From an uncultured Candidatus Saccharibacteria bacterium (GTDB lineage Bacteria; Patescibacteriota; Minisyncoccia; Minisyncoccales; Staskawiczbacteraceae), in the NCBI GenBank assembly GCA_964479955.1, contig CAYZNK010000002.1, forward strand, positions 7,489 to 71,488: a stretch of 64,000 nt of DNA. Reading direction: 5' to 3'. The notes under the pieces were generated by a model that saw only the letters and a list, made by a program, of their open reading frames with translations, had not been told where the DNA came from and searched no databases. The stretch's first letter is position 1. Each line of letters starts with the position of its first letter. A program made the translations under genes and the position numbers. Shown here in pieces: positions 4,092 to 49,951 of this stretch.

Positions 4092-4292
4092 ATGAAAATT
4101 ACAGCAAAAACAACATTGGCAAAAATTTTGGAAACAAAAGGAGCCAATAAAATTTTAAAAAAATACGGAGTGCCGTGCTTGTCGTGTCCCATGGCGGCTT
4201 TTGAATTGGAAAAATTGCAAATAGGCCAGGTGTGCAAAATGTATGGCCTGCAAGAAAAAGAAATTTTAAAAGAACTCAATCTCCTAAAATAA
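4092..4292 (+). CDS. small DUF1858-type (redox-disulfide) domain protein
   Basis: 66 aa with a GVPCLSCPMA motif typical of the hybrid-cluster-protein-associated redox disulfide domain. Composition is host-like. Confidence 0.7.
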   Translation: MKITAKTTLAKILETKGANKILKKYGVPCLSCPMAAFELEKLQIGQVCKMYGLQEKEILKELNLLK

Positions 4293-4301
4293 CCCCAGAT
4301 A

Positions 4302-4330
4302 GTCATTGCGGTTCCTGACACCCCAATGAC
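4302..4330. repeat. REP hairpin, chimeric arms (GCGG left / GGGG right)
   Basis: gtcattgcggttcctgacaccccaatgac. Confidence 0.7.
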
Positions 4331-4337
4331 TAATGTA

Positions 4338-4408: not shown

Positions 4409-4900
4409 CTAATTAATTGTATATCCCATATAGCACACAGGACACGCAGAACCAGGCGTTTTTTTACCAGGCGGATTGTCTGGTTGGTCAAGAAATACGG
4501 AGATATTAACGCAACTGTTTCTTTCTAAGAAGGGCACAGCACTGTCGTTTGTTTCTCGGACCAAAAATAGAATACCCTTTTTCTCGTTGGGTAATAATCT
4601 TGCAAGAATTTTTTCAAACATCTGCGTGCCAACGCCACGGCGTCGCATCTCAGGGGCAGTGGCGAAGTTTAATACGTTAATACGATTCTTGTATAGATCG
4701 TAAATCACGAAACCGATAACCCGGCCGTCGTACTCGGCAATTATACCAAAGCAGTTGCGTTGGCGAAGACAATGGATAAAGTCGTCTTCTGACCAAGGAA
4801 ATTCAAAGCTAGCGGCTTCAATTGCCAGAACTTCTTGCAAGTCACACCGCATTATCCAGCGAATAGTAGTTTTCAACAAACATTCTTGATCAACTGACAT
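4409..4900 (-). CDS. GNAT family N-acetyltransferase, RimI-like (cassette C)
   Basis: AAGGA at 4912-4908 lies 7 nt before ATG 4900. LAIEAASFEFPWSEDDF...RRRGVGTQMFEKILARL is the acetyl-CoA-binding motif. The track start at 4954 is rejected. Confidence 0.82.
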   Translation of the reverse strand: MSVDQECLLKTTIRWIMRCDLQEVLAIEAASFEFPWSEDDFIHCLRQRNCFGIIAEYDGRVIGFVIYDLYKNRINVLNFATAPEMRRRGVGTQMFEKILARLLPNEKKGILFLVRETNDSAVPFLERNSCVNISVFLDQPDNPPGKKTPGSACPVCYMGYTIN

Positions 4901-5052
4901 GATGTTTTCCTTATTTTCAAAGAGCCGACCGTAAAGAACAAAAACTATATTCAAGATAATTCCAAAAATAATTCTGTGTCAAGAGATGTTGATTCAAAAA
5001 ATAAATGTGGTAAAATAATAATTAGATAGTCCGCCAATCGGCGGAAAAAATT

Positions 5053-6617: not shown

Positions 6618-6646
6618 GTTATTTTAAAATTAAAATTTTTAGTATA

Positions 6647-6707
6647 AGCGGATATCCTTCGTTTTATAAAAACTCAGGATAAATTTATTCGCTTCACTCA
6701 TAAATTT
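6647..6707 (+). promoter_or_regulatory. start-codon-abutting conserved hairpin element, copy a
   Basis: agcggat[ATCCT tcg..ctc AGGAT]aaatttattcgcttcactcataaattt is directly followed by ATG 6708. Confidence 0.45.
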
Positions 6708-7496
6708 ATGTTTGGATTGAACAAAACAACTCCAAGATTCTGCGACCTAAGGGGAAAAGTTGCAATAATAACCGGAGCTAAACAAGGAATGGGCAAGACT
6801 CACGCTTTGCTTTTGGCAAAAGCCGGGGCAAAAGTTGTTGTTTCAGATATTTCAAAAGAAGAATGCCAGCTTGTTGTTGACGAAATTAAAAAACAAAAGG
6901 GAGAAGCAATTGCTGTAAAGTGTGATATAAGCAACAAGGCAGATGTTGACAATATGATTAAGGAAACCCTGGAAAAGTTTAAAAAAATTGATATCTTGGT
7001 AAACAATGCCGGGATTTTTCCGTTCAAGCCGTTTTTAGAACTGTCAGAAAAAGATTTTATGAAAGTGATTGATATTAATTTAAAGGGATATTTTTTGTGC
7101 TCCCAAGCAGCTGCCAAAGAAATGGCAAAACAAAAATCTGGCGCGATTGTGAATATTTCTTCAATCGCAATGGGACAGGTTGGAATGGGGTTTGCCGGAT
7201 TGACTCATTATTGCGCCTCTAAGGGCGGAGTTGTTGGAATGGCAGAGGCTATGGCCCTGGAATTGGCTCCTCTTGGAATAAGGATAAATACAATAGCTCC
7301 AGGAGCTATTGAAACACCGGGAGCTACGGGTGGGGCTGACAAAAAAGGAGATGAATCGATGGTTTCAGTTGTGCCCATGAAACGATGGGGAAAGCCGGAG
7401 GAAATTTCAAATGCAGTTTTGTTTTTGGCTTCCGATGAATCATCTTATATGACAGGCTCTGTAATGGTTGTTGACGGAGGGTGGACAGCAACTTAG
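6708..7496 (+). CDS. short-chain dehydrogenase/reductase (FabG-like)
   Basis: TGAKQGMGK Rossmann motif, NNAG, catalytic YCASKGG. Confidence 0.88.
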   Translation: MFGLNKTTPRFCDLRGKVAIITGAKQGMGKTHALLLAKAGAKVVVSDISKEECQLVVDEIKKQKGEAIAVKCDISNKADVDNMIKETLEKFKKIDILVNNAGIFPFKPFLELSEKDFMKVIDINLKGYFLCSQAAAKEMAKQKSGAIVNISSIAMGQVGMGFAGLTHYCASKGGVVGMAEAMALELAPLGIRINTIAPGAIETPGATGGADKKGDESMVSVVPMKRWGKPEEISNAVLFLASDESSYMTGSVMVVDGGWTAT

Positions 7497-7676
7497 GGAA
7501 ATTTATTCGTAAATTCCCTTGACAGGTCAGTTGGTTACGAATAAAATAGGTTAATAACTAAAATTAAATAAAATTTTTGGCACAACTGAATTCTGCCAAA
7601 TTAAAAAATTGAAATTGTAAAATTAAAACACGAAACATTTTGTATCTGTTTTAAATTTCATTTCATAAAAAATATA

Positions 7677-7838
7677 ATGCCAGAGGCATATTGCGTAAAG
7701 TGTAAAGCAAAAAGGGAAATGAACGACCCAAAAGAAGTCACAATGAATGGCAAAGGAGGAAAAAAGAGAGCTGCAATGACAGGTATCTGCCCGGTTTGCG
7801 GAACAAAAATGTTTAAGATTATGGGCCTGAAGAAATAA
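7677..7838 (+). CDS. 53-aa zinc-ribbon protein (DUF5679-like), below the ORF-track cutoff
   Basis: ATG 7677 to TAA 7836-7838. Translation is MPEAYCVKCKAKREMNDPKEVTMNGKGGKKRAAMTGICPVCGTKMFKIMGLKK. Confidence 0.65.
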   Translation: MPEAYCVKCKAKREMNDPKEVTMNGKGGKKRAAMTGICPVCGTKMFKIMGLKK

Positions 7839-7839
7839 T

Positions 7840-8004
7840 ATCAGCCCTACTGTAAATTAAATTTTTGGTCTGCAAAATCAGAAAAGCTCCTCGTCTTATC
7901 TATTTTATTGATAAAACTCGTCGCTTTTCTGATTTTTCGCCGCAAATCTTTAATTTTCGCAACGGGCAATATTATTTTTCAGTCCCTGGGCCTGAAGAAA
8001 TAAT
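7840..8004. mobile_element. MITE-like long imperfect palindrome with a 17-bp flanking direct repeat
   Basis: gggcctgaagaaataat occurs at 7823-7839 and at 7988-8004. Between them are ~60-nt inverted arms sharing aataatat..aaattaaa..tttg..aaaatcagaaaagc. Confidence 0.6.
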
Positions 8005-8018
8005 CGTTTAATCTTCAA

Positions 8019-8055
8019 AACTAAAATCCGGCTTTCATAGCCGGGTTTTAGTTTG
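8019..8055 (+). terminator. rho-independent terminator
   Basis: aactaaaatccggct-ttcat-agccgggttttagtt followed by tg. Confidence 0.65.
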
Positions 8056-8067
8056 TATAATTAAAAA

Positions 8068-8967
8068 ATGAAAAGAAAATATATTTTTCTGTTTTTAGGA
8101 TTTTTATTTGTGATAAATATTTTTTGTTGGAAAGAAGTTTTTGTTTTAGCCCAAAGTAATAATTTGGAGATTTATTTTTTAAATGTGGGGCAAGGAGACT
8201 CTGCTTTTATTAAAACTCCGGAAAATCATCAAATCATAATTGACGGAGGTCCGACCTCCGTAGCCCTGGAGAAGATAGCAAAAATAATTCCATTTTGGGA
8301 TAAAACAATAGACTTGGTTATTTTAACCCACCCTGAAAAAGACCATATGCAGGGGCTGATGGATATTTTAAAAAGATACAAAGCAGACCATATTTTGGTT
8401 TCAGGGGTTTTAAAAGATTCGGAAGATTATAAAGAGTGGCAAAAAATTTTGCAAAACCAGAAAAACAGGGGAGCAGATGTTATATCAGTAAGGGCAGGAG
8501 ACAGAGCTGTTTTGGGAGACGCTTTAATAAAAATTTTGTATCCTTTGCAGGACTTTTCTGAAGTTAAAACAAATAAAAGCACCAATGAATCCTGTGTAGT
8601 TTCTGACCTGGTTTTTGGCACAAACTCATTTTTGTTTGCCGGAGACATCTCTGCAAAAAACGAAGCAGAAATTATTGCGGCCCCAAGAACCGCAATAACT
8701 GCTGATGTTTTAAAAATTGCGCACCACGGGTCAAAATATTCCACTTCCGAAGAATTTTTAAAGAACGTCGGGCCTGAATTTGCCATAATATCTGTTGGAA
8801 AAAATTCCTACGGCCATCCAACCCAGGAAACTTTGCAAAAATTGGAAAAATTTGGTATACAAGTATTAAGAACAGACACAGACGGCGATATAAAATTTGT
8901 GTCTGACGGTACAAATATTATTGTTAATCCCAAATCCCCAAACCCCAATGCCCAATCCGCTGACTGA
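8068..8967 (+). CDS. ComEC/Rec2-related metallo-beta-lactamase-fold protein (MBL domain only, N-terminal anchor)
   Basis: YFLNVGQGDSAFI, LTHPEKDHMQG and KIAHHGSKYS motifs, with an N-terminal hydrophobic helix. Confidence 0.8.
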   Translation: MKRKYIFLFLGFLFVINIFCWKEVFVLAQSNNLEIYFLNVGQGDSAFIKTPENHQIIIDGGPTSVALEKIAKIIPFWDKTIDLVILTHPEKDHMQGLMDILKRYKADHILVSGVLKDSEDYKEWQKILQNQKNRGADVISVRAGDRAVLGDALIKILYPLQDFSEVKTNKSTNESCVVSDLVFGTNSFLFAGDISAKNEAEIIAAPRTAITADVLKIAHHGSKYSTSEEFLKNVGPEFAIISVGKNSYGHPTQETLQKLEKFGIQVLRTDTDGDIKFVSDGTNIIVNPKSPNPNAQSAD

Positions 8968-10099: not shown

Positions 10100-10103
10100 A
10101 AAG

Positions 10104-10130
10104 TTTGTGGGGTGTCGGAGACCCCACAAA
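10104..10130. repeat. REP hairpin
   Basis: tttgtggggtgtcggagaccccacaaa. Confidence 0.8.
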
Positions 10131-10423: not shown

Positions 10424-10569
10424 AATAATTTTGCTAGAAATCTAAAAAAATATTAGGGCAACAAAAAACAATTCGTTTAAGGCGAGTTGTTTTTTTGTTT
10501 TTAACTTTGCTTCCATGTTAAAATAAATAAAATAAGCGTGATTTTCATAATTAATACAACTAACCAGAG

Positions 10570-10595
10570 TTTGTGGGGTGTCCGGCACCCCACAA
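10570..10595. repeat. REP hairpin
   Basis: tttgtggggtgtccggcaccccacaa, immediately upstream of the RAYT gene. Confidence 0.8.
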
Positions 10596-10617: not shown

Positions 10618-11415
10618 ATGAAAATAAAACAGACACAATTAGTTAACAATGAAGTTTATCACATCATCTTAAGGGCAGTTGGCGATAGCTCTGTTTTTAA
10701 CGATCAGAATGACTATTATCGTGGTATTTTTTCCATCTACGAATTCAATAATTCGAAACCAACAGAAATATGGCTGAGGCGAATACAACGTAAAAAAGAG
10801 AAACTCCTTGAAAAACAGGAAGCATTGGGGTGTCCAGCATTGGGGTGTCCGACACCCCAACATTGTGCGACAAAAATAGTCATTGGGGTGTCGGACACCC
10901 CAATGACTAAAGAGGATGATAAGAGAGATAAATTTGTGGAGGTGTTGGCGTTTGCTTTTATGCCAAATCACATTCATTTGTTGCTTAAACAATTAAAAGA
11001 TTGTGGCATAAGTAAATTTATGCAAAAAGTTGGTGGAGGATATGCAAATTATTTTAATAAAAAATATAATCGCAAAGGGCATTTATTTAATAAGTTTAAA
11101 TCAGTTTATATCACTAATGATGACCAACTAAAAACAGTTTTTGCATATATTCACACAAATCCTTTATCTTTTGTGGAACCTAAATGGAAAGAAAATGGGA
11201 TTAAAGATGAAAATAAAGCAGTTAAATTTTTAGAAAAAGAATATAGGTGGTCAAGTCATTTTGATTATCTTGGCAAGAAAAATTTTCCGTCTGTGACCAA
11301 CAGAGATTTCCTTTCAGAAATAATGGGAGGAGAACAAGGATGCAGAGAAGCAATTAGGGATTGGATAAAATATAAAAAAGACATTAATAATTTTGGTGAT
11401 ATTATTTTAGAATAA
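10618..11415 (+). CDS. REP-associated tyrosine transposase (RAYT; IS200/IS605 TnpA-like Y1 HUH enzyme)
   Basis: YHIILRAV, HUH motif MPNHIHLLL and catalytic Tyr context AYIHTNP. REP hairpins flank it on both sides. Confidence 0.85.
   Translation: MKIKQTQLVNNEVYHIILRAVGDSSVFNDQNDYYRGIFSIYEFNNSKPTEIWLRRIQRKKEKLLEKQEALGCPALGCPTPQHCATKIVIGVSDTPMTKEDDKRDKFVEVLAFAFMPNHIHLLLKQLKDCGISKFMQKVGGGYANYFNKKYNRKGHLFNKFKSVYITNDDQLKTVFAYIHTNPLSFVEPKWKENGIKDENKAVKFLEKEYRWSSHFDYLGKKNFPSVTNRDFLSEIMGGEQGCREAIRDWIKYKKDINNFGDIILE
10823..10907. repeat. REPIN (inverted REP pair plus a partial third copy) embedded in-frame in the RAYT ORF
   Basis: cattggggtgtccag + cattggggtgtccgacaccccaa + cattgtgcgacaaaaatagt + cattggggtgtcggacaccccaatgac. 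It translates as ALGCPALGCPTPQHCATKIVIGVSDTPMT. Confidence 0.8.
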
Positions 11416-11422: not shown

Positions 11423-11479
11423 GTCATTTTGCGGTCTCCGACACCGCAAGAATCTTGCGGTGTCGGAGACCGCAATGAC
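11423..11479. repeat. REPIN (inverted REP pair, GCGG class)
   Basis: ttgcggtctccgacaccgcaa-gaatc-ttgcggtgtcggagaccgcaa, flanked by gtcatt/aatgac. Confidence 0.8.
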
Positions 11480-11566
11480 TATTTGAAAGGGAAGTTATTC
11501 ACAGTGTTGACATCAAGAATTTATGATAAAATAAATAAAAATAGAAGTAGAAATTTAAAATTCTTA

Positions 11567-14500
11567 ATGCGATTAATGAGGGGAAATACCGCAAGAAAAA
11601 AAAGAGGAAAGAATTTTTCAAAACAAAAGTTCATTTTTTTGTTAAAATTTTTATTTCCTAAGAATATATTTTTATCACTGCTATCGGGGTTGGTCTGGGC
11701 CGGTTTGTTTTCTGTTGTTATCTATACTTTTGCAACTCCTCCCACAAGCCCCTATACATTGGGTGAAACTTTAAATCCATCTTGCGCTCCCGGATCAACA
11801 AATTGTACCGTCACCGAGCTTGCGGCTTATTCTTTTGGTTCTAATAATTTTTCAGGCACCGGAAATTTTGTAACAACAGGATCGGGATCATTTGGAAGTT
11901 TGGTTTTAACAACGTCAGCCTTGGAGGTTGGTTACGGAGGAACGGGCGTTGCGTCAATTGCGGCAGGTTCTGTTTTGGCGGCAAACACAGCCAATACGCT
12001 AACTGCAATAAATTCAACATCCGGAACCATGTATTTGAAGAATGTTGACGGAACAATCAGTTGGGGGGAAGTTTCATTAGGCTCTTATGTGCCGTACACT
12101 GGAGCAACATCAGATGTAAATTTGGGAGTAAATAATATTATTTCTTCAAAGTTAATTGGAGGTTCTGAAACTACTTCTGACCTTTCTCTTCAAACAACCT
12201 CAGGAATTGGAGCGACTGGAGCTGATATGCATTTTCTTGTTGGAAACAATGGTGGAACGGAAGCGATGACAATATTAAATTCTGGAGCAATAGGAATTGG
12301 AACAACCACACCACAAGTAAGCTTGCACAATAACGGTGACTTTATTACAAAGGGTCCATGGGCAGATGTCCGAGCTTATGGAGCAACCGGAGATGGAGTA
12401 ACCGATGATACTACGGCTGTTCAAGCTGCGTTGACCGCTTCACTAAATGTATATTTTCCCGCTGGAACATATTTGGTTTCAAATCTTACTGCCCAAACAG
12501 GTCAGCGTATTTTTGGAGATGGTACTCAGTCATCAATACGTTTTAAGGATGGGTCAACTGGATATCTGTTTGAATTATCTACTAAAGTGGTTCAATTTTC
12601 TAATCTTGACATAGACGGAGGAAGCAACACAGATAAATCTGCCACCGAATCAGCTGGAACACGCAGTGGTATTCACATGTCTTCAAACAATACTGGAAGC
12701 TCTATTCAAAACGTAGCCATTCACGGATTTGATAATATTGGTCTTGCATTTAATGGACTTGCTTCTCAGCCGGGATATGTAAACCCACCGGTAACAACAG
12801 GTGTAAGCGTTTATTATAATTACGTGGGTATAGATACTGGCGTAGGCGAAACTAATGGTGCTGAATATATGAGAATGTCTGATATTAATTCTTTTGGAAA
12901 TAGATATGGAATAATAATAAATTCTGGCAATATGACTTTTGCTGATTGTCATATCGATGGTAATGGTTATGGTGTTACCATTACAGACGCTTTTAACAAT
13001 GCTCATGGAACCATAGTTGGCAGTACTATAAACCACAATTTGTTATACGGTTTTTATATTGATGGAGCAAGTAATGGTTTTTCTATTACCGGTAACCAAA
13101 ATTATTACAGCAATGTTTATGTTAAAGATTCAACAGGAATTAATTTTAGAGGAAATACTTTTGGATCTTCAACTTTTACTTTTAGTGGAGGTGGTGTTAA
13201 TATGCTTGAAGGAAATTATTTTGTTTCTACACCATCTTTTTCAAGAACAAACGACAATTTTATAATTTCAGATAATTATACGGGCTCAAGTCCAACGTCT
13301 GTTAGCTCTGGTTTACAAATATATTCCGGACTTGGTTCAGTAAAAGCTTCGGCATTATCAACCTATGCTGCGCCAGTAAATATTGTTACGCCTAATCCAT
13401 TTAGTGGTACATCTACAGCTAATTCGGTTCCAAGTTTAGCAAGCAACGTTGCTATTACCACAAGTGATGCTTGGGGCAAAGATATTGGTGGTGTTTTAGG
13501 ATTGGGCGGGCAATATAATACAGCAGTAACATATCCACAGGTTATTTTTGGAGCATTAAGAGGAGGTAAAAGTACTGTTACAGATGGCGATATGGCCGGT
13601 TATTTAGGAATTTATACAAATAGCGGATCTGCTCTTTCTGAAGTAGCTAGATTTGATAACAATGGTTATCTTGGCATTGGCGTGGAAGCCCCATCGCAAG
13701 AGCTGGATGTTGTTGGCGATATTGAGCTTGAAGACACAACCTCAGATGACACCGGCGTTATCTACAAAGGAGCAAACAGGTTTTTACATAACTTCCATCA
13801 CCCGACTGGAAGCACTGCTGTGCCTACGGGTCAGAATACCTTTGTAGGCGAAGGAGCTGGAAATTTTACAATGGGAAGTACGGCAACAGAGACTTATCAC
13901 GGAAGTTATAATACTGGTGTAGGTTATCAAGCATTACAAGCCAATACCACAGGATTCTACAACACAGCGAATGGTGTGTCTGCCCTCTACTCCAATACCA
14001 CAGGAAGTTACAACGTTGCGAATGGCTCTAATGCCCTCCGCATGAACACCACAGGAAGTTACAACACAGCGAATGGTGTGTCTGCCCTCTCCTCCAATAC
14101 CACAGGAAGCTACAACACAGCGAATGGTGTGTCTGCCCTCTCCTCCAATACCACAGGAAGCTACAACACAGCGAATGGTGTGTCTGCCCTCCGCTTAAAC
14201 ACCACAGGAAACTCCAACACAGCGAATGGTATGAATGCCCTTTTTTCCAACAAAACAGGCTCTAATGGTGTGGCTATTGGGACTGAATCACAATACTATG
14301 CTAATGACACCTTAACCCCGTGGACAAACTACAACACCTCAGTTGGGTATCAGGCTTTAAGGGGTTCTACCACCGCCGCCGACAACACCGGCAACTACAA
14401 CACAGCGTTGGGATATCAGTCTCTGCTTAACATTACAACAGGAAGCCATAATACAGCAGTAGGGTATATGGCAGGATACTACATTGCAGGCGGAGCAGTA

Positions 14501-17131
14501 AATAACACAATATCTGACTACTCAGTGTACCTTGGAAACTCAACTAAAGCCTCTGCTGACAATGCCCAGAACGAGATTGTGATTGGATATGACGCAACAG
14601 GTCTTGGCAGTAACTCCGTTGTTTTGGGAAATTCAAGTATTACCACAACAGTCCTGCGTGGAGCTGTTGGTATTGGCGTGGAAGCCCCATCGCAAGAGCT
14701 GGATGTTGTTGGCGATATTGAGCTTGAAGACACAACCTCAGATGACACCGGCGTTATCTACAAAGGAGCAAACAGGTTTTTACATAACTTCCATCACCCG
14801 ACTGGAAGCACTGCTGTGCCTACGGGTCAGAATACCTTTGTAGGCGAAGGAGCTGGAAATTTTACAATGGGAAGTACGGCAACAGAGACTTATCACGGAA
14901 GTTATAATACTGGTGTAGGTTATCAAGCATTACAAGCCAATACCACAGGATTCTACAACACAGCGAATGGTGTGTCTGCCCTCTACTCCAATACCACAGG
15001 AAGTTACAACGTTGCGAATGGCTCTAATGCCCTCCGCATGAACACCACAGGAAGTTACAACACAGCGAATGGTGTGTCTGCCCTTTTTTCCAACAAAACA
15101 GGTTCTAATGGTGTAGCTATTGGTTATGATTCTCAGAGATATGCCAACGACACCGCAGTGGCTTGGGCAAACTACAACACCTCAGTTGGGTATCAGGCTT
15201 TAAGGGGTTCTACCACAGCGGCAAACAATACGGGGAATGAAAATAGTGTATTTGGATACCAAACACTTTACGCTAATACTTCGGGTCAAAAAAATTCTGC
15301 GATTGGAACTTGGTCTTTATATTCCAACACTACAGGAAGCTACAATACAGGAATTGGATGGGGAACTCTTTATAACAATACCACGGGTAATTCTAATATT
15401 GCACTTGGATATGAAGCGGGAAGATATATTGCTGATGGTTCAACATCTAATACTACATCTGATTACAGTATATATATTGGTAGAGGCGTAAAAGCCTCTG
15501 CTGACGATGCCCAGAACGAGATTGTGATTGGATATAATACGACAGGACAGGGAAATAATACAATCACATTCGGCAATACCTCAATGGTTGGGGCTTACTT
15601 CTTGGCAGACGATTATAAAACCTACTGGGGAGCAGGAAAAAATGCTTCAATCAACTATGATGGAGATAATATGTATTTTAATAGTCAGGAAGTTGGAGTT
15701 GGCAGTTTTATTTTTTCAGGAGGCAATGTTGGCATTGGAACAGTAACCACTCCAACTAACGCAAAATTAGTTGTAAACGGAGGCATAGCTGTTGGTGCTG
15801 ATGCATTAAATAATACAATCAGCACAGGTTCTTTGGGAGACGGAACTACCACTTTATATGTAGGCACATATACGGTAGATACCACGGCTCCTTCAGATAT
15901 AATTACAAAAGAAGAAATAGTTTCAACAAGTTATGGATTGGAAGATTTATTAAAACTGTCTGTTAAAAATTACAAATATAAAAGACAATATGTTAATGAA
16001 GGCGCGGTTCAAGAGGAACACACAGGTTTGATTGCCCAGGATGTTGAACAGATTTATCCTGAGGCTGTTATATACAGGTCGGATGGGCTTAAGGCTATTA
16101 ACTATACAAAAATGATTCCGCTGATTATCAGTTCTATACAGGAACTTTCTGCGGGAAAAACTTTGTCAGATAATGGAACTTGGGGTGAAGGCACAGTTTT
16201 TGGTTTGGAAGATTCTTCTTTTACGGCTCAGCTAAAGCTGGCTTTTACCAGCCTTGGAATCTATATTGAAAAAGGAGTGGCTACTTTTGAGGAAGTCATT
16301 GCGCAAAAAGCAACCATAAAAACAGCAAAGGTTGAAGGTCTTGAAATGGTTGATAAGACAACCGGCGAAATTTGGTGCACGCAGATTAGCAACGGCGAAT
16401 GGACAAAAACAAAAGGAGAATGTAATCCTTCCGTTGTGACTCAGGAAACTTCAACAGAAAGTTCTACACAAATAGAGACTGCGCTTGAAATTCAAACAAC
16501 AACGCAAAATGAAGTATCTTCAGAAGAAATCGTAGAAGAAGTCAAAGAAAAAGTTAAAGAAGAGGTTAAAGAAGAAGTGAGTCAGCAGGTTGCAGAAAAA
16601 ATTAAAGACCAAGTGGTCCAGGAGGTTACAGAACAAGTGACAGAACAGATAACAGAGGCAGTTCAACAGGTTACAGAACAAAGCAACGAAGCAAAACATT
16701 CGGCTAACGAAGCGCAACAGTCTGCAAAAGAGTCTCAAAAACATGCCGAACAAGCCCAGCAGGCTGTAGAAAAATCAACAAAACAGCAGGTAGAGGAAAT
16801 AGAACAAGAAGAAGCAGTAGAACCTGTTGAGGCTGTTGAAACCGTTGAAACCCTTGAAGTTGAATCAGCTGAGGAACCAACTGTTGAACAGCCCCAAGAA
16901 GAACAGCAGTCATCAGTTGGAGATTTAATACAAGAAACAACAGCGGGGTTGTTTAGCGGAGTTATGAATTTCATAAAATGGCTGTTTGGTTCTGCGGCCC
17001 AGACGGTTTCAAAGGCCGTCCCCGCGGATGTTATGCAGTCAACAGCCAGTTTATCATCAAGCGTTTCAGATAATTTTATACAGGGGATTAAACAGATAAT
17101 AAATGATGTTAAGAATATTTTGAAATTCTAA
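11567..17131 (+). CDS. giant membrane-anchored surface fibre protein: beta-helix (pectate-lyase-like), repeated fibre modules, peptidase-S74 intramolecular-chaperone domain and a Glu/Gln-rich tail
   Basis: ATG 11567 is chosen because upstream codons read through the REPIN. TM helix LSLLSGLVWAGLFSVVIY. DVRAYGATGDGVTDDTTAVQAAL..YFPAGTYLV. Recurrent G.GIG...P...L.V.G motifs. SDIITKEEI...GLIAQDVEQIYPEAV...INYTKMIPLIISSIQEL. Confidence 0.8.
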   Translation: MRLMRGNTARKKRGKNFSKQKFIFLLKFLFPKNIFLSLLSGLVWAGLFSVVIYTFATPPTSPYTLGETLNPSCAPGSTNCTVTELAAYSFGSNNFSGTGNFVTTGSGSFGSLVLTTSALEVGYGGTGVASIAAGSVLAANTANTLTAINSTSGTMYLKNVDGTISWGEVSLGSYVPYTGATSDVNLGVNNIISSKLIGGSETTSDLSLQTTSGIGATGADMHFLVGNNGGTEAMTILNSGAIGIGTTTPQVSLHNNGDFITKGPWADVRAYGATGDGVTDDTTAVQAALTASLNVYFPAGTYLVSNLTAQTGQRIFGDGTQSSIRFKDGSTGYLFELSTKVVQFSNLDIDGGSNTDKSATESAGTRSGIHMSSNNTGSSIQNVAIHGFDNIGLAFNGLASQPGYVNPPVTTGVSVYYNYVGIDTGVGETNGAEYMRMSDINSFGNRYGIIINSGNMTFADCHIDGNGYGVTITDAFNNAHGTIVGSTINHNLLYGFYIDGASNGFSITGNQNYYSNVYVKDSTGINFRGNTFGSSTFTFSGGGVNMLEGNYFVSTPSFSRTNDNFIISDNYTGSSPTSVSSGLQIYSGLGSVKASALSTYAAPVNIVTPNPFSGTSTANSVPSLASNVAITTSDAWGKDIGGVLGLGGQYNTAVTYPQVIFGALRGGKSTVTDGDMAGYLGIYTNSGSALSEVARFDNNGYLGIGVEAPSQELDVVGDIELEDTTSDDTGVIYKGANRFLHNFHHPTGSTAVPTGQNTFVGEGAGNFTMGSTATETYHGSYNTGVGYQALQANTTGFYNTANGVSALYSNTTGSYNVANGSNALRMNTTGSYNTANGVSALSSNTTGSYNTANGVSALSSNTTGSYNTANGVSALRLNTTGNSNTANGMNALFSNKTGSNGVAIGTESQYYANDTLTPWTNYNTSVGYQALRGSTTAADNTGNYNTALGYQSLLNITTGSHNTAVGYMAGYYIAGGAVNNTISDYSVYLGNSTKASADNAQNEIVIGYDATGLGSNSVVLGNSSITTTVLRGAVGIGVEAPSQELDVVGDIELEDTTSDDTGVIYKGANRFLHNFHHPTGSTAVPTGQNTFVGEGAGNFTMGSTATETYHGSYNTGVGYQALQANTTGFYNTANGVSALYSNTTGSYNVANGSNALRMNTTGSYNTANGVSALFSNKTGSNGVAIGYDSQRYANDTAVAWANYNTSVGYQALRGSTTAANNTGNENSVFGYQTLYANTSGQKNSAIGTWSLYSNTTGSYNTGIGWGTLYNNTTGNSNIALGYEAGRYIADGSTSNTTSDYSIYIGRGVKASADDAQNEIVIGYNTTGQGNNTITFGNTSMVGAYFLADDYKTYWGAGKNASINYDGDNMYFNSQEVGVGSFIFSGGNVGIGTVTTPTNAKLVVNGGIAVGADALNNTISTGSLGDGTTTLYVGTYTVDTTAPSDIITKEEIVSTSYGLEDLLKLSVKNYKYKRQYVNEGAVQEEHTGLIAQDVEQIYPEAVIYRSDGLKAINYTKMIPLIISSIQELSAGKTLSDNGTWGEGTVFGLEDSSFTAQLKLAFTSLGIYIEKGVATFEEVIAQKATIKTAKVEGLEMVDKTTGEIWCTQISNGEWTKTKGECNPSVVTQETSTESSTQIETALEIQTTTQNEVSSEEIVEEVKEKVKEEVKEEVSQQVAEKIKDQVVQEVTEQVTEQITEAVQQVTEQSNEAKHSANEAQQSAKESQKHAEQAQQAVEKSTKQQVEEIEQEEAVEPVEAVETVETLEVESAEEPTVEQPQEEQQSSVGDLIQETTAGLFSGVMNFIKWLFGSAAQTVSKAVPADVMQSTASLSSSVSDNFIQGIKQIINDVKNILKF
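13676..14088 (+). repeat. 413-bp segment, copy 1 of a perfect in-frame duplication
   Basis: By eye it is identical base for base to 14672-15084 (offset 996 bp = 332 codons). Confidence 0.85.
13955..14260 (+). repeat. six tandem 51-bp (17-aa) repeats, (S/F)YNTANGVSALxSNTTG
   Basis: Units read off the sequence; the central units are near-identical at nucleotide level. The second module (14951-15103) has only three units. Confidence 0.8.
14672..15084 (+). repeat. 413-bp segment, copy 2 of the perfect in-frame duplication
   Basis: Identical to 13676-14088. Confidence 0.85.
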
Positions 17132-23620: not shown

Positions 23621-23638
23621 TTTAATCTCAACAGTCAG

Positions 23639-23664
23639 CTTGTGGGGTGTCCGACACCCCAATA
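23639..23664. repeat. REP hairpin
   Basis: cttgtggggtgtccgacaccccaata. Confidence 0.8.
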
Positions 23665-25768: not shown

Positions 25769-25812
25769 TTTTTGCTACTAAATTTGCTCAGTAGCAAATT
25801 TAGTAGCAAAAA
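25769..25812. repeat. long perfect hairpin between rpsG and the antisense gene
   Basis: ttgctactaaatttgct-cagt-agcaaatttagtagcaa forms a 17-bp perfect stem, extendable by flanking T/A runs. Confidence 0.7.
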
Positions 25813-25849
25813 ACCCCGCGGATGAACCGAAGGGTATGTTGAGATTTTC

Positions 25850-26098
25850 TTAAACAGGTTCTTCTTTACAGGGAAGTTTTTCAAGTATTTCACGGGTATT
25901 AGGCATCAGTCTTCTGATGTCAAATTCTGTCTCATTTTCTCTTAAAAAATAAAGGATTGTTACCTCAATATTAGCTGAGGCGACCATTAGCGCTAAGCAA
26001 TCTTTAGAAATTCCGGTGAAAGCGTTAATGCTTGCAACATTTTCTGTGATAAGCCGCTGAATTTCACAGAATTTTTGGAAAAGAACAGAAAGTTTCAT
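25850..26098 (-). CDS. hypothetical 82-aa protein antisense to the str operon (cassette D)
   Basis: AAGGA at 26110-26106 lies 7 nt before ATG 26098. Upstream TTGACT..TATAAT-like boxes. The track start 26173 is rejected. Confidence 0.55.
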   Translation of the reverse strand: MKLSVLFQKFCEIQRLITENVASINAFTGISKDCLALMVASANIEVTILYFLRENETEFDIRRLMPNTREILEKLPCKEEPV

Positions 26099-26238
26099 AC
26101 AACGTTCCTTTATAATAGAAGGTTGGTTGTCATCAGAATTGATAATATTATAAAACAAAATAAAAATAGTCAAGTCAATTTAAATATTTAATCATTTTAA
26201 ATTATTTTAAAATTTAACATTAAAAATTAAAAATTAAA

Positions 26239-26294
26239 CAGAGGTAACCCTTCGTTCGACTCGGGGTAAATTTATTCGCCTCGCTCATAAATTT
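26239..26294 (+). promoter_or_regulatory. start-codon-abutting conserved hairpin element, copy b
   Basis: cagaggta[ACCC ttcgttcgactc GGGT]aaatttattcgcctcgctcataaattt is directly followed by ATG 26295. Confidence 0.45.
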
Positions 26295-28370
26295 ATGGCC
26301 AGACAACATCCATTAGATAAATTAAGAAATATTGGAATTATTGCGCACATTGATGCTGGGAAAACAACATTTTCTGAGCGCCTTTTGTTTTATACCGGAG
26401 TTTCCCATAAAATAGGAGAAGTACACGAGGGAGAGGCAGTTATGGATTGGATGGTGCAGGAAAGGGAAAGGGGAATTACAATTACTTCGGCGGCCACAAC
26501 AATGTACTGGAAAGACTACCAGATAAACCTTATTGACACTCCTGGCCACATTGACTTTACAGCAGAAGTGCAGAGGTCTTTGAGGGTTTTGGACGGAGCT
26601 GTTGTTGTGTTTGACGGAGTTGCAGGAGTAGAGTCCCAATCAGAAACAGTGTGGAGGCAGGCAGACAAATACTCTGTGCCAAGAATGTGCTTTATAAATA
26701 AGTTGGACAGAATGGGAGCATCTTTTGAAAAAAGTTTTCAGTCAATATTAAACAAACTTACAACAAACGCAGTTGCAATTTCAATTCCAATGGGGGTTGA
26801 AGAAAAGATGTCAGGCGTTATTGATTTGCTGAAAATGAAGGCATTGTACTTTGAAGGCGAAAAGGGAACTGAAGTTATAGAAAAAGAAATTCCGGAAGAA
26901 TGGAAGGCAGAAGCCGAAGAATGGCACAAAAAAGCCATTGAAAGAATTGCAGGAGAAGATGACGGGCTGACAGAAAAATTTTTGGAAGGAAAAGAAATTT
27001 CTTTGGAAGAATTGAAAAAAGCTTTAAGAAAAGCGGTTTTAGATTACAAGCTGGTGCCTGTTTTATGCGGAACTGCCTTAAAAAACAAGGGAGTTCAGCC
27101 TGTTTTGGATGCAGTTGTTGATTATATGCCCTCTCCTTTAAATCTGCCCCCTGAAAAGGGAACAGACCCAAAAACAGGGGCTGTTATTGAAAGAAAAGCG
27201 GACGACAGTGAGCCGTTTTCGGCTTTGGTTTTCAAAGTTGCCACAGACCCTTTTGTTGGAACTTTGACTTATTTTAGGATTTATTCAGGAAAGCTTGAAA
27301 AAGGCTCTTATGTTTTAAACGCCAACACAGGAGAACAGGAAAGAATTGCCAGAATTTTAAGGATGCATGCTGACGAAAGAAAAGAGCTTGATGTTTTGTA
27401 TGCGGGAGAAATTGGGGCAACGGTTGGATTAAAAGCAACAAGCACGGGGCATACTTTGTGCGCAAAGGAAGCTCCGATTATCTTGGAAAAAATTGTGTTT
27501 CCTGAGCCTGTTATTGGAATCCGTGTTGAGCCAAAGACAAAAGCCGACCAGGAAAAGCTTATTATGTCTATCAGAAAACTTACTGAAGAAGACCCAACGT
27601 TTAGGATTAAAGAGGATTTGGAAACCGGTGAAACAATTATTTCTGGAATGGGAGAATTGCATTTGGATATTATTGCAGACAGATTGAGAAGGGAGTTTCA
27701 CGTTGAAGCCAATTACGGCAAGCCTCAAGTAGCTTATAGAGAGACAATTACCGCAGAGGGGCAGGGCGAAGAAAAATATGTAAGGCAGTCGGGAGGAAAA
27801 GGACAATACGGACATGTGCTGTTAAAAGTTGCTCCAAAAGAAAGGGGAGCAGGATTTGAATTCGTTGACGAAATTAAGGGAGGAGTTATTCCAAAAGAAT
27901 TTATCAAACCCATTGAAAAGGGAGTACAGGAGGCAATGGACAAGGGAATTGTTGCGGGATATCCTATGGTTGATGTTCAGGTCACACTATATGACGGAAG
28001 TTATCACGAAGTTGACTCTTCTGAGTTTGCCTTTAAAATTGCGGGTTCAATGGCATTTCAGCATGCCGCTAGAAATTCAAAGCCGGTTATTTTGGAGCCA
28101 ATTATGAAAGTGGAAATTGTTACCCCTGAAAACTTTTTTGGGCAGGTTATTTCCGATGTTTCTTCAAGAAGAGGAAAAATAGAGGAAACTTCAGAAAGAG
28201 TTGGAATGAAAGTTATTGACGCAATGATTCCTTTGTCAGAAACATTTGGATACGCAACATCTTTAAGGTCTTTGACCGAAGGCAGGGCGTCATTTACAAT
28301 GGAATTTAACAAATATGAGCAGGTTCCAGGAAACGTTGCGCAGGAAATTATTGATGGCAAGAGAAAATAG
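26295..28370 (+). CDS. fusA: translation elongation factor G
   Basis: [27 protein letters not shown]; 691 aa. Confidence 0.97.
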
Positions 28371-28404
28371 AGATATTAGTATTTATAACTCTAAAAATAT
28401 AAAA

Positions 28405-28430
28405 AGTGATAGGACATCCTATCACTTTTT
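28405..28430 (+). terminator. rho-independent terminator after fusA
   Basis: agtgatagg-acat-cctatcact followed by tttt. Confidence 0.65.
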
Positions 28431-28456
28431 AGTTAGCAAGCTCCAACCTTGCAAGA

Positions 28457-28505
28457 ATTGGGGTGTCGGACACCCCAATATTGTGCGACAAAAATAGCCA
28501 TTGTA
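28457..28505. repeat. REP hairpin plus the REPIN linker sequence (half REPIN)
   Basis: aattggggtgtcggacaccccaatattgtgcgacaaaaatagccattg. The linker is the same as in 10861-10885. Confidence 0.8.
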
Positions 28506-28557
28506 ATAAAAAAGCGCCTTGTCCTAACAAAGACTTGGCGCGCCTCGAGTTCGCTAG

Positions 28558-28607
28558 TTTGCGAGGTCGGACCTCGCAAGGTTTTTGCGAGGTCGGACCT
28601 CGCAAAA
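28558..28607. repeat. two direct REP hairpins (GCGAG class)
   Basis: ttgcgaggtcggacctcgcaa occurs twice, separated by ggttt. Confidence 0.8.
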
Positions 28608-28611
28608 CTTT

Positions 28612-29010: not shown

Positions 29011-29119
29011 CACATTCTCCTTTGCGTAAGCGAATATGGAAAGAACTAATAAAATAATATCAAAAATAAGAAATTTGTCAAAGATTTTGGATTGTTTTTT
29101 GAAAATATAAAACACCCTC

Positions 29120-29148
29120 TTGACTATTAAAAAAAAATAGAATAATAT
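29120..29148 (+). promoter_or_regulatory. candidate dedicated tuf promoter
   Basis: TTGACT, 17-nt spacer, TAATAT. The leader contains gtacaaat...atttgtac and gcgcc...ggcgc hairpins. Confidence 0.5.
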
Positions 29149-29257
29149 AAAATTATTAAAAGGCAGTACAAATGCCAAGAGGTTATTTGTACACAAATAA
29201 AATAAAAAAGTAATTAAATTTTTGCGCCTGGCAAATGGCGCGAGAAAAAAATAATCA

Positions 29258-30847: not shown

Positions 30848-30850
30848 AAC

Positions 30851-31111: not shown

Positions 31112-31120
31112 GGTGAAGAC

Positions 31121-31254: not shown

Positions 31255-31284
31255 CGTTAAGATTCAAAATCAATAAATTTAAAC

Positions 31285-33860: not shown

Positions 33861-33904
33861 TCGAGCAAAGCGAGAAATATTATTCACTTCGTTCATAAAT
33901 TATC

Positions 33905-34237
33905 ATGGCAAGAAGTTTAAAAAAAGGTCCGTATATTGACGAAAAATTATTGAAAAAAGTATTGGGCCTGAGAAAAGACGAAAAAAAGATTATAAAGACA
34001 TGGGCAAGGCATTCTTCTATCTCTCCGGAAATGATTGGCTGTACTTTTGGCGTACATAATGGAAAGGAATTTGTTCCGGTTTATGTTTCAGAGGATATGG
34101 TGGGCCATAAATTAGGAGAATTTGCCGCAACAACTAGATTTTTGAGGCATGGAGGAAAAATACAAAAAGCCATAGAAGCCGGAGAGGAACAAAAACAGGC
34201 AGTTAAAATAGAGCAGTCATCTGTTGCCAAGAAATAA
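33905..34237 (+). CDS. rpsS: 30S ribosomal protein S19
   Basis: [11 protein letters not shown]...[12 protein letters not shown]...[12 protein letters not shown]. Confidence 0.96.
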
Positions 34238-34754: not shown

Positions 34755-34762
34755 TTAAAAGT

Positions 34763-39990: not shown

Positions 39991-40422
39991 ATGCAATTAC
40001 ACGAATTAAAGCCAACACATAAAAATAAATCCAAGAAAAGAGTGGGAAGAGGAGGAAAGAAAGGCACATATTCAGGTAAAGGATTAAAGGGTCAGAGTTC
40101 AAGGGCAGGAAGAAAGATGGTTCCGATAATAAGGGAAATAATAAAGAGGTATCCAAAGCTTAAAGGATACAGGAGATTTGTTTTTGAAAATAAAACAGCT
40201 ATAATTAATTTAGATACAATAGAAAAGAATTTTAAGGACGGAGATTCAGTAAATCCAAAAATTTTGATTGAAAAGGGAATTATAAGTTTAATGAAAGGAA
40301 AGATTCCTAAAGTTAAGATACTGGGAGATGGGAAAATTTCAAAAAAAATAACTGTTGAAAAATGCAATCTTTCAGATTCTGCGAAAGAGTCGATTAAAAA
40401 AGCCGGAGGATCAATAAAATAA
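39991..40422 (+). CDS. rplO: 50S ribosomal protein L15
   Basis: MQLHELKP...RVGRGGKKGTYSGKG.KGQ. It follows rpsE directly, with no L30 gene between them. Confidence 0.95.
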   Translation: MQLHELKPTHKNKSKKRVGRGGKKGTYSGKGLKGQSSRAGRKMVPIIREIIKRYPKLKGYRRFVFENKTAIINLDTIEKNFKDGDSVNPKILIEKGIISLMKGKIPKVKILGDGKISKKITVEKCNLSDSAKESIKKAGGSIK

Positions 40423-40505
40423 GCGAGACGTCCTTCGCTTTATATAATGAATTATTATATATCAATATAAAGCTCAGGATGATTTATTCGCTAAGCTCAT
40501 AAATC
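40422..40505 (+). promoter_or_regulatory. start-codon-abutting conserved hairpin element, copy c (expanded loop)
   Basis: agcgagacg[TCCT tcgctttatata...tatataaagctc AGGA]tgatttattcgctaagctcataaatc is directly followed by ATG 40506. Confidence 0.45.
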
Positions 40506-41783
40506 ATGTGGTACGAAAAAATAACTTTTCTCTTCAAAGATAAAGACCTAAGAAAAAAATTTCTTTTTGTAATTTTTTTGTTTGTTGTTTTCAGAATAGC
40601 CGCAAATATCCCAATCCCGGGCATTGGAACGGAAAATTTGAAGAAAATGTTTGACCAAAATCAGGCGTTTGGATTAATGAATATATTTACGGGAGGGGCT
40701 ATGAGTAACTTTTCAATTGCTCTTTTGGGGCTTGGTCCTTATATCACGGCAACCATTATTCTGCAACTGCTTACAATGATTTTTCCTGCGTTAGAAAGAA
40801 TGTACAAGGAAGAAGGAGAAGCGGGTAGGCAAAAATTCAACCAATACTCAAGACTGTTTGCAATTCCCCTTGCTGCCTTCGAGGCTTACGGAATGCTGGC
40901 TGTTTTTCAGAATCAGGGAATGATTACGGGATTATCCCTGCCGGTTTTAATAAGCTCTATTATAACAATTACAGCCGGTTCAATGTTCTTGATGTGGATT
41001 GGAGAAATTATTTCAGAGCAGGGAATGGGCAATGGAATATCCCTTTTAATTTTTGCCGGAATAGTTGCCACTTTGCCTATAAATATTTTCCAGACTTTTG
41101 TGGTATGGGATGTGTCAAAAATTCCTTCTTATATTTTGTTTGCGGTTTTGTCTGTTGTAATAATAGCAAGCGTTGTCATAATCACAGAAGCCCGCAGAAA
41201 CATACCTGTTTCTTATGCAAAAAGAGTAAGGGGGGCAAAGATGTACGGTGGAGTTTCAACATATTTGCCATTAAGCGTTAATCCGGCTGGAGTTATCCCT
41301 ATTATCTTTGCAATGTCCATACTTTTATTTCCTTCAATGATAGCTACTTATCTGGGAACATACCCGGGAGTTGTGGGGGCTGTTGCAACAAGCATTGGAT
41401 TACTTTTTAATAATGCCTGGGTTCATGGAATTTTATATTTTTTATTGGTAATTCTTTTTACATATTTTTACACAGCAGTAACATTTGACCCGAAAGCAAT
41501 TGCTGAAAATTTACAAAAGATGGGAGGGTTTATTCCAGGAGTAAGGCCGGGAAATTCAACTTCTACTTTCATGAGCCATATTTTAAACAGGGTTTTGTTC
41601 ACAGGAGCCATGTTTTTGGGCCTCATAGCAGTTCTTCCATCAATTGTTTCCGGAATTACAGGAGTTTCTGGGTTCTCATTTCTGGTTGGAGGAACATCTT
41701 TGTTAATCGTTGTCAGTGTCGTTTTAGAAACAGTAAGGCAGATAAATTCCCAGCTTCAAATGCGGGAATACGACGCCTTTTAA
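40506..41783 (+). CDS. secY: preprotein translocase subunit SecY
   Basis: 10-TM profile and canonical position after rplO. Confidence 0.96.
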   Translation: MWYEKITFLFKDKDLRKKFLFVIFLFVVFRIAANIPIPGIGTENLKKMFDQNQAFGLMNIFTGGAMSNFSIALLGLGPYITATIILQLLTMIFPALERMYKEEGEAGRQKFNQYSRLFAIPLAAFEAYGMLAVFQNQGMITGLSLPVLISSIITITAGSMFLMWIGEIISEQGMGNGISLLIFAGIVATLPINIFQTFVVWDVSKIPSYILFAVLSVVIIASVVIITEARRNIPVSYAKRVRGAKMYGGVSTYLPLSVNPAGVIPIIFAMSILLFPSMIATYLGTYPGVVGAVATSIGLLFNNAWVHGILYFLLVILFTYFYTAVTFDPKAIAENLQKMGGFIPGVRPGNSTSTFMSHILNRVLFTGAMFLGLIAVLPSIVSGITGVSGFSFLVGGTSLLIVVSVVLETVRQINSQLQMREYDAF

Positions 41784-49880: not shown

Positions 49881-49951
49881 TAGATTTTTGGGATGCAAGG
49901 CGATAGCCCTTCGACTACGCTCAGGGCTGATATCTGCAGACTAAAAATCTA
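49881..49951 (+). promoter_or_regulatory. multi-stem structured element upstream of rpoA (related inner hairpin)
   Basis: Outer stem tagattttt / aaaaatcta. Inner hairpin AGCCCT-tcgactacgctc-AGGGCT has the same TCG...CTC loop ends as copies a-c. Confidence 0.4.

Follow-up and report, generated by a model that had tools for sequence, protein, structure and literature searches.

A two-hairpin element at start codons in a Staskawiczbacteria genome and its possible role at translation initiation

Results

Three copies of the element end at start codons

The 64,000-nt stretch of DNA analysed here (the window) has a G+C content of 36%, and the closest named relatives of its SecY are metagenome-assembled genomes (MAGs) of Staskawiczbacteria, which belong to the Parcubacteria of the candidate phyla radiation (CPR). 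It carries three strong copies of an element of about 60-87 nt, composed of two hairpins, P1 and then P2, with no linker between them. The copies stand directly at the ATGs of an SDR-family gene, fusA and secY, as an earlier note on this DNA had claimed. The 23-mer ATTTATTCGCNNNRCTCATAAAT has three exact matches in the window, all on the + strand, against 0.03 expected, and none of 100 shuffled sequences reaches three:

6683-6705, + strand: exact match to ATTTATTCGCNNNRCTCATAAAT
26270-26292, + strand: exact match to ATTTATTCGCNNNRCTCATAAAT
40482-40504, + strand: exact match to ATTTATTCGCNNNRCTCATAAAT

These matches stop 1-4 nt 5' of the ATGs of the SDR-family gene (6708), fusA (26295) and secY (40506), and each has CCTTCG-(5 to 35 nt)-CTCRGG on its 5' side. 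The SDR and fusA copies adjoin the ATG despite upstream gaps of 169 and 526 nt, so that short spacers alone are no explanation for the adjacency. CCTTCG...CTCRGG also occurs, without P2, before rpoA (49908-49925), and a generic scan of the window for the underlying unit (stem / TCG-insert-CTC / stem) gave six occurrences on the + strand and one on the - strand, compared with 0.1 in shuffled sequences. The upstream regions of the window genes are A/T-rich and lack a Shine-Dalgarno (SD)-like sequence, which bears out the earlier description of these genes and agrees with the loss of the anti-SD motif, often absent in a subgroup of the Parcubacteria (PMC9297842).

The three copies are laid out as follows.

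6646..6710, + strand: copy a, before the SDR gene (covariance model, 55.6 bits)
6646-6654, + strand: copy a, 5' strand of helix P0, AAGCGGATA
6653-6681, + strand: copy a, P1 (TATCCT / TCG-11 nt-CTC / AGGATA)
6679-6688, + strand: copy a, P2 5' arm, ATAAATTTAT
6689-6699, + strand: copy a, P2 loop, TCGCTTCACTC
6700-6709, + strand: copy a, P2 3' arm, ATAAATTTAT, overlapping the ATG at 6708-6710
26241..26297, + strand: copy b, before fusA (covariance model, 56.9 bits)
26241-26245, + strand: copy b, P0 strand GAGGT, pairing with GCCTC at 26278-26282
26247-26267, + strand: copy b, P1 (ACCC / TTCG-TTCGA-CTC / GGGGT)
26267-26275, 26276-26286 and 26287-26295, + strand: copy b, P2 5' arm, loop TCGCCTCGCTC and 3' arm; ATG at 26295-26297
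40422..40508, + strand: copy c, before secY (covariance model, 48.4 bits)
40422-40427, + strand: copy c, P0 strand AGCGAG, pairing with TTCGCT at 40487-40492
40429-40481, + strand: copy c, P1, with a 35-nt AT-rich inner hairpin
40479-40487, + strand: copy c, P2 5' arm, ATGATTTAT
40488-40498, + strand: copy c, P2 loop, TCGCTAAGCTC
40499-40507, + strand: copy c, P2 3' arm, ATAAATCAT; ATG at 40506-40508

Copy c occupies the entire rplO-secY spacer, starting from the last base of the rplO stop codon.

Both hairpins covary, and an alternative helix is predicted

P1 varies in length and sequence, and in most copies its base reads CC-UUCG...CUC-RGG. P2 is an AU-rich stem of 8-12 bp around an 11-nt loop, UCGC-NNN-RCUC, and the end of its 3' arm ranges from a 2-nt overlap with the AUG to a 3-nt gap before it. 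A single unit, stem, TCG(C)-insert-(R)CTC, stem, underlies both hairpins: its insert is C-NNN-R in P2 and a hairpin in P1. Read on the opposite strand, this unit is YUGA-G[hairpin]C-GAA, a helix with tandem G.A pairs interrupting it and a minihairpin of the GCGAAGC type as its cap.

The covariation proposed earlier was found in both hairpins. In a model-based alignment of P2, 95.8% of the cells are paired and four of the nine pairs change on both sides, a result matched by none of 500 shuffles; in slid registers, pairing falls to 24-42%. Stem positions 7 and 8 are paired in 14/14 copies, as G-C, A-T or T-A, and since both lie outside the search pattern, their pairing is free of ascertainment. 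The P1 stems differ among copies and yet always pair (ATCCT/AGGAT, ACCC/GGGT and TCCT/AGGA), with long unrelated stems in L002, L006, L012 and L016 (L-numbers, L002-L179, denote the loci retrieved from other genomes and contigs).

RNAfold often favours another helix, P0, in which the stretch just 5' of P1 pairs with the P2 5' arm and the first half of the loop. The P0 energy is -7.1 kcal/mol for cognate pairs of flank and target, compared with -5.6 kcal/mol for non-cognate pairs (permutation p = 0.0003) and -4.1 kcal/mol for shuffled flanks; with P0 limited to loop nucleotides, the pseudoknot-compatible case, p = 0.017. The NNN of the loop follows the flank, as in AAGCG/CGCUU of copy a, GAGGU/GCCUC of copy b, GCAAGG/CCUUGC of L037 and AGGC/GCCU of L016. 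Two partners are possible for AUUUAUUCGC: the P2 3' arm, in which case the helix closes on the AUG, or the stretch 5' of P1, which gives P0 and leaves the AUG region free. As modelled, these alternatives are arranged as in a switch or an H-type pseudoknot.

Position and orientation are kept in other CPR genomes

The exact P2 pattern was found at 21 loci in the GTDB species set. Eleven of these lie on Staskawiczbacteria/Parcubacteria-type contigs, and all 11 are in sense orientation, with the ATG of a long open reading frame (ORF) 1-4 nt after the conserved core. The genes on their 3' side are rpoC (in two genomes), rplL, rplO, rpsR and rpmA, together with genes for an RNase J-like metallo-beta-lactamase, a Mur ligase, LigT, a membrane protein and a secreted repeat protein; rpsH in L018 and another gene in L037 are preceded by copies whose stems are altered. 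Downstream genes are thus enriched in components of the expression machinery (fusA, secY, rpoC twice, rplL, rplO, rpsH, rpsR and rpmA).

When 294 kb of CPR loci were searched with a covariance model built on P2, only the known copies and the L142 orthologue were retrieved, with a marginal sequence before rpsS. All of the matches (18/18) are on the strand of the downstream gene and at start codons, for which an insertion target as short as ATG is insufficient. Copies are few: the window has three in 64 kb, about 100 kb of loci from relatives have none, and two other MAGs each have two to three exact matches to P2.

The copies were gained recently and one of them is constrained

Orthologous loci were reached through homologues of SecY, elongation factor G (EF-G) and the SDR protein.

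rplO-secY spacer: 83 nt with the element in the window, and 83 nt with the element in L142 (96% identical SecY)
rplO-secY spacer: 15, 19 and 5 nt of plain A/T-rich sequence in relatives with 88, 85 and 84% identical SecY
Upstream of fusA: element in the window, none in relatives with 86-91% identical EF-G
Upstream of the SDR gene: element in the window, in neither of the relatives at 89% and 86%

Because the element is absent at the secY, fusA and SDR sites of these relatives, the comparison identifies the copies as recent lineage-specific gains and not as ancestral leaders of these genes. The term conserved, used of this 5' element in the earlier note, therefore holds among copies only. In L018, another Staskawiczbacteria genome, the element stands before rplO and rpsH, and the spacer at secY is a different one.

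Between the window and L142, 245 of 835 four-fold sites differ (29%; 21% of A/T sites and 52% of G/C sites). Along the secY copy, 2 of 83 positions differ, against 25.6 expected from the four-fold sites (Poisson P = 3e-9), which indicates that this copy is under purifying selection. Of these two differences, one replaces C-G by U.G in P1, as read on the sense strand.

The spacers of the S10-spc-alpha region (window 30500-50000) measure 33-137 nt and are hairpin-rich in the window/L142 lineage, while in the relatives L143 and L145 they measure 1-33 nt, rpsD-rpoA excepted. Even the 96% relative differs completely from the window in some of them, such as rplB-rpsS.

Sequences that resemble the element

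Degenerate copies had also been proposed before rpsS, rplR and murA. The covariance model has no match before rplR or murA at E <= 10, and the rplR sequence is not kept in L142, so that both were abandoned. The sequence before rpsS stands as a marginal match only, and the 96% relative has unrelated sequence at that place:

33871..33906, + strand: decayed P2-like sequence before rpsS, marginal (20.6 bits, E = 0.06)

The 11-mer AAATTTATTCG at 7499-7509, which had been taken for the core of the element, is part of a different hairpin, shared with L150. At window 7497-7560 and at about 3287-3350 of L150, the conserved hairpin GGGAAATTTATTCGTAAATTCCC lies 3' of the SDR gene and is followed by a promoter-like TTGACA-17 nt-TAAAAT; this hairpin accounts for the 11-mer having been mistaken for a copy. 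Judged by its sequence, the TTGACA-17 nt-TAAAAT site probably serves the DUF5679 zinc-ribbon gene as its promoter region.

A related structure was also said to precede rpoA, and a unit of the expected type is present there (CCCTTCG..CTCAGGG):

49905..49928, + strand: P1-type unit AGCCCT-TCG-ACTACG-CTC-AGGGCT, not a full copy

The unit is found in this genome only, but the structure that bears it, of which it forms the apical hairpin, is a separate and larger rpsD-rpoA leader hairpin (about 49881-49951) that is kept in relatives. The leader reads UAGAUUUU-GGGAGCAGGGUGAUAG-variable apical hairpin-CUGAUAUCUGCA-AAAAUCUA and occurs at window 49881-49951, at about 19165-19275 of L142, and in L143 and L144, four genomes whose SecY proteins are 85-100% identical. 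The leader is much more stable when folded in sense than in antisense (-29 vs -21 kcal/mol), has no Rfam match, and is a candidate ribosomal-protein or rpoA leader.

The hairpin unit occurs beyond the CPR

In metagenomes, the two-unit pattern was found, among the matches listed, mostly on contigs of 55-70% G+C, with a consensus like gatcCCTTCGacaaGCTCAGGGCAGGCTCTTCGCTTCGCTCAGGATGACA. Repeats of the gatcCCTTCGacaaGCTCAGGGCAGGCTCTTCGCTTCGCTCAGGATGACA type often form tandem arrays (L115, L060, L023 and L098) or long inverted pairs (L125, L123 and L099), and by a crude gene call they have no orientation preference relative to neighbouring genes. A very abundant repeat family of the high-GC contigs L022-L141 (for example L115, L060, L125 and L099) has ends of the form TGTCATCCTGAGCGAAGCGAAGGACC...GGTCCCTTCG...GCTCAGGATGACA and makes tandem arrays with a period of 24-29 nt. 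Searches of Rfam and of the literature yielded no description of this high-GC TCGC-NNN-GCTC family.

The exact AT-stem 23-mer is also present in DPANN and other archaeal MAGs, in two cases beside tRNA genes, and in 28 IMG/VR contigs. About 26 phage contigs (90-160 kb, about 30% G+C; among L152-L179, for example L155 5780-5850) carry one conserved intergenic nested hairpin, TTCG-TAATTTAT-TCGCTACGCTC-ATAAATTA-CTC, between co-directional genes. In these phages it is the G.A strand that lies in mRNA sense, the reverse of the CPR arrangement. L010 and L007, labelled as contigs of bacterial MAGs, have the same sequence as the viral contig L164. The plasmid-like contig L013 has the same hairpin at 4482-4504, where a KfrA_N gene and a Mob_Pre relaxase gene flank it, and its loop reads AGCGTAGCGA on the other strand; from its sequence and place, it is possibly an origin of transfer (oriT) or a single-strand origin. 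No transposase was found beside the non-CPR matches, whose neighbours include helicase, AbiU2, KfrA/Mob and SmpB genes and others.

Other repeats and gaps in the window

A second hairpin family has a ..GTCGGAC.. centre and variable stems, as in TTGGGGTGTCGGACACCCCAA and TTTGCGAGGTCGGACCTCGCAA:

1266-1293: ..GTCGGAC.. hairpin
4299-4333: ..GTCGGAC.. hairpin
10102-10129: ..GTCGGAC.. hairpin
10568-10595: ..GTCGGAC.. hairpin
10836-10910: ..GTCGGAC.. hairpin
11428-11482: ..GTCGGAC.. hairpin
23637-23664: ..GTCGGAC.. hairpin
28433-28609: ..GTCGGAC.. hairpin

In relatives, GTAG-tagged hairpins of the same ..GTCGGAC.. type flank genes for RAYT-like Y1_Tnp proteins (L151, about 4170-4200 and 4900-4935; L150, about 3700 and 4470). 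For this reason, the family looks like the clade's own system of repetitive extragenic palindromic (REP) sequences and RAYT transposases. The PF01797 (Y1_Tnp) proteins measure 227-236 aa (L150 3756-4466; L151 4223-4906), and their genes lie between the DUF5679 and metallo-beta-lactamase genes, 3' of the SDR gene. The corresponding site of the window, 7838-8068, has no gene. Here, at 7818-8003, a palindrome of some 150 nt, with its arms at 7833-7903 and 7907-7977, is enclosed by a 17-nt direct repeat, GGGCCTGAAGAAATAAT, which contains the stop codon of the small DUF5679 gene. By its sequence, this looks like an insertion with target duplication, at the position of the Y1_Tnp gene in relatives.

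The str operon of the window has two long gaps. The rpsG-fusA gap (25769-26294) measures 526 nt and contains an antisense ORF (25850-26173) with no Pfam match, and the fusA-tuf gap (28371-29257) measures 887 nt and contains REP hairpins and an antisense ORF (28612-29196), also with no Pfam match; relatives, too, have variable small genes between fusA and tuf. At 11429-17131, a 1900-aa ORF includes arrays of a 51-nt (17-aa) repeat (13940-15357) and a 996-nt internal duplication.

Discussion

The position rule, the purifying selection and the alternative between P0 and P2 together favour the interpretation that the element is an RNA structure close to the translation start, an operator or switch, on a dispersed cassette derived from REP sequences. 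We hold this interpretation tentatively, with ample room for doubt. The cassette would have been copied into the intergenic spacers of Staskawiczbacteria, always in sense orientation, and retained afterwards by purifying selection. With the 3' arm of P2 at or over the AUG, the element would be transcribed as the last part of a leader or of an intercistronic spacer. P2 closing on the AUG and P0 leaving the AUG region free would be alternative states, and the structure may in this way set or regulate the initiation of the downstream cistron without SD pairing. It is from these features that we infer action as RNA, action on initiation and any trans-acting partner. As for the possibilities listed in the earlier note, a translation-initiation or processing signal and start-codon-associated mobile hairpins now lead, while a conserved 5' element and an antisense ORF fall away.

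The evidence on which strand acts is mixed. Sense RNA is favoured by the fixed sense orientation, the contact with the AUG, the G.U pairs of P0 and the change from C-G to U.G between the window and L142. Several results weigh against an RNA structure acting at the start codon. P2 is weak as sense RNA (-2.5 to -7.5 kcal/mol), and the total fold energy is -349 kcal/mol for antisense compared with -284 kcal/mol for sense. The conserved mismatches are destabilising U.C/C.U in sense and tandem sheared G.A in antisense, and the R of the loop makes C.A in sense (5/16 distinct sequences) and G.U in antisense. The predicted accessibility of the start regions of the three genes is ordinary (ranks 19-35 of 61). 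Moreover, the element is not required before the same genes in close relatives, and several other alignable operon spacers are also 93-97% identical between the window and L142, so that the constraint on the element is ordinary for functional spacers.

Minihairpins of the d(GCGAAGC) type and tandem G.A pairs are exceptionally stable. Strong thermodynamic sequestration of the start codon was rejected, given the ordinary accessibility, and counts of G.U pairs were discarded as a strand criterion because they are balanced (16 in sense vs 17 in antisense). There is no sigma-70-like promoter in the element or just 5' of it, the spacing of TTATTC/CATAAAT being wrong, and no promoter-like site for antisense transcription was found.

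The main rival is that the element is a selfish palindrome of REP-like or miniature inverted-repeat transposable element (MITE)-like DNA without host function, which a single-strand-DNA transposase or recombination would have spread. Its position would then result from the insertion mechanism and a filter of tolerance, with only the orientation of the weak U.C hairpin surviving by a start codon and SD-less genes tolerating an insertion at position -1. Orthologous sites are patchily occupied even where the proteins of relatives are 84-96% identical, and this is in line with such an origin, as are the stabler hairpin on the antisense strand, the generally expanded and hairpin-rich spacers of the window and L142, and the unit's tandem or inverted arrays on many high-GC contigs with no bias in gene orientation. 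In addition, GTAG-tagged REP hairpins flank the clade's genes for RAYT-like Y1 transposases, and REPs of that type are present in the window. We nevertheless consider a purely selfish element unlikely, if deserving of serious attention, since purifying selection is strong along the whole secY copy, copy number is low, and ATG is too short a target for 18/18 copies at true start codons. There is also no GTAG tag, terminal inverted repeat or visible target-site duplication, and the copies of this genome share P2 and have unrelated P1 loops, which argues that they are not recent products of transposition.

A punctuation site for RNA processing or stability seems improbable, more so than selfish DNA. 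Cleavage would occur at or near the element, or transcription would start just before it, and a P1-P2 cap would protect the cistron from 5' exonuclease; in a variant, cleavage at the 3' foot of P2 would leave a nearly leaderless mRNA starting at the AUG. Copies within operons do lie at plausible junctions of differential expression (rplO-secY, rpoB-rpoC and rplJ-rplL), P1 and P2, with no linker between them, could stack as one long helix, the foot of P2 is 0-3 nt from the AUG, and one copy precedes the gene for the RNase J-like metallo-beta-lactamase. Yet the stem end varies in its spacing from the AUG, between a 2-nt overlap and a 3-nt gap, which speaks against cleavage by a precise rule; a fold of the tRNA-like or RNase P/Z type was not detected (ARAGORN reports only a tRNA-Pro in the window), and a pure stabiliser need not touch the start codon. 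Function on the DNA or on the antisense strand is less probable again: the functional form would be the G.A-capped antisense hairpin (YUGAG-hairpin-CGAA), for example as a site for protein binding or recombination, as a hairpin of single-strand DNA, or as the 5' hairpin of a cis-antisense RNA over the translation start. The antisense strand is the better fit to the conserved mismatches and to the C.A / G.U asymmetry, the phage contigs carry the 23-mer with the G.A strand in mRNA sense, and the match between the kfrA-like and Mob_Pre genes is in the expected place for an oriT or single-strand origin. Set against this are the missing antisense promoter-like site, the G.U pairs of P0 and the window/L142 substitution, which favour sense, the compensatory stem changes, which oppose a double-stranded operator read by its sequence, and the core ribosomal-protein genes, which are not cassettes. 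That the element encodes a small peptide, either the antisense MSEANKF... ORF of the earlier note or a sense upstream ORF (MIYSLRS*), is hardly credible. Antisense ATGAGYGARGCGAATAAA is found in most copies and sense ATGATTTATTCGCTTCGCTCATAA in the shorter-stem subfamily, but the antisense ORF stops after 8 codons in copy c, its products measure 8 residues upwards, and a 1-nt indel in the stem, between subfamilies, alters its frame beyond ANK. Copies a and b and the GTG/ATA variants offer the sense ORF no start codon, and the conserved nucleotides of the hairpin explain all of the similarity; peptide coding was rejected on the frame-shifting indels between copies.

If the element is indeed an RNA structure acting at the start codon, a broader view can be drawn, which we regard as rather doubtful, a little more so than selfish DNA: a portable operator or switch (P0/P1/P2), copied from gene to gene in an SD-less CPR lineage, would constitute a mobile post-transcriptional regulon under one trans-acting factor. 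Its movement would rewire which genes of the expression machinery answer to that factor, and the regulon would be derived from a REP-like hairpin unit common to bacteria, archaea and phages. The module moves between genes (fusA, secY, rpoC and ribosomal-protein genes) over short evolutionary distances, and it offers a concrete sequence for studying the choice and regulation of start codons in CPR bacteria without SD pairing. The hairpin unit itself is common to abundant, apparently undescribed repeats of soil bacteria, to DPANN archaea and to large phages; common descent, a common enzyme and convergence on an unusually stable hairpin cap are candidate causes of this sharing.

Comparison with known systems

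No known RNA family covers the element, as the earlier note had supposed. Rfam 15 gave nothing at the gathering threshold in the window, with chance-level matches only at E <= 10 over copy c, and no match over the related loci searched at E <= 1. Several known structures were considered and rejected. Of the hammerhead ribozyme, the antisense strand has only YUGA-G[hairpin]C-GAA; C3/G5 (in P2) or N7-G8-A9 (in P1) are absent, and there is no Rfam match. A kink-turn could have its tandem G.A in antisense but there is no three-nucleotide bulge. An intrinsic terminator, a G+C-rich hairpin before a U tract, is contradicted by the AU-rich P2 followed by ATG, the P1 of copy b fitting the terminator scan weakly. 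The copies contain no GTTRRRY/RYYYAAC boxes of an integron attC site and their neighbours are genes of core ribosomal-protein operons; an integrase was not searched for. An alternative to the SD sequence would not be confined, as this motif is, to a few genes.

REP elements and their composites, bacterial interspersed mosaic elements (BIMEs), are reportedly associated with RAYT (Y1) transposases in E. coli and Pseudomonas. Like the cassette, they are short imperfect extragenic palindromes in composites, with variable stems and a conserved hairpin signature, intercistronic within operons and lineage-specific in their presence; all copies of the element are likewise intergenic hairpins. The cassette differs in having no GTAG/CGTC tag (its 5' flanks read ..ATAAGCG.., ..AAAGG.. 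or ..CAGAGG..), very few copies, one orientation, an end at the start codon and strong purifying selection. The clade's own GTAG-tagged REPs, with their ..GTCGGAC.. core, are another sequence family. The TCGC-NNN-GCTC repeats found across phyla share with the cassette the hairpin unit (short stem, TCGC-NNN-RCTC, short stem) and the two-unit arrangement but, unlike it, they form arrays or inverted pairs in high-GC genomes, in either orientation, and are not tied to start codons.

Among small non-autonomous palindromic repeats, the Correia (NEMIS) and ERIC/IRU elements of Neisseria and enterobacteria are 100-150 bp long, with terminal inverted repeats and target duplications, and occur in high copy number and in both orientations. 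They resemble the cassette in being co-transcribed and often near gene starts, and they alter the processing or stability of mRNA. Their length, terminal inverted repeats, target duplications, high copy number and double orientation are not seen in the cassette. None of its copies has terminal inverted repeats, and comparison of the filled secY sites (window and L142) with the empty ones (L143-145) reveals no target duplication, the spacer being wholly replaced.

Operator hairpins that contain a start codon include the MS2 replicase operator and the autoregulatory structures of the alpha and spc operons. They share with the cassette a hairpin or pseudoknot at the AUG, a conserved loop, a covarying stem and an association with genes of the expression machinery. 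The cassette has the hairpin at the start codon, the conserved loop and the covarying stem; unlike these operators, it precedes many unrelated genes, is not kept at orthologous sites and has a weak predicted hairpin. Taken together, these comparisons place the element, undescribed as such, within a known general kind, that of small composite palindromic repeats co-transcribed with genes. What is unusual in it is the strict anchoring to start codons in an SD-less organism, combined with evidence of selection.

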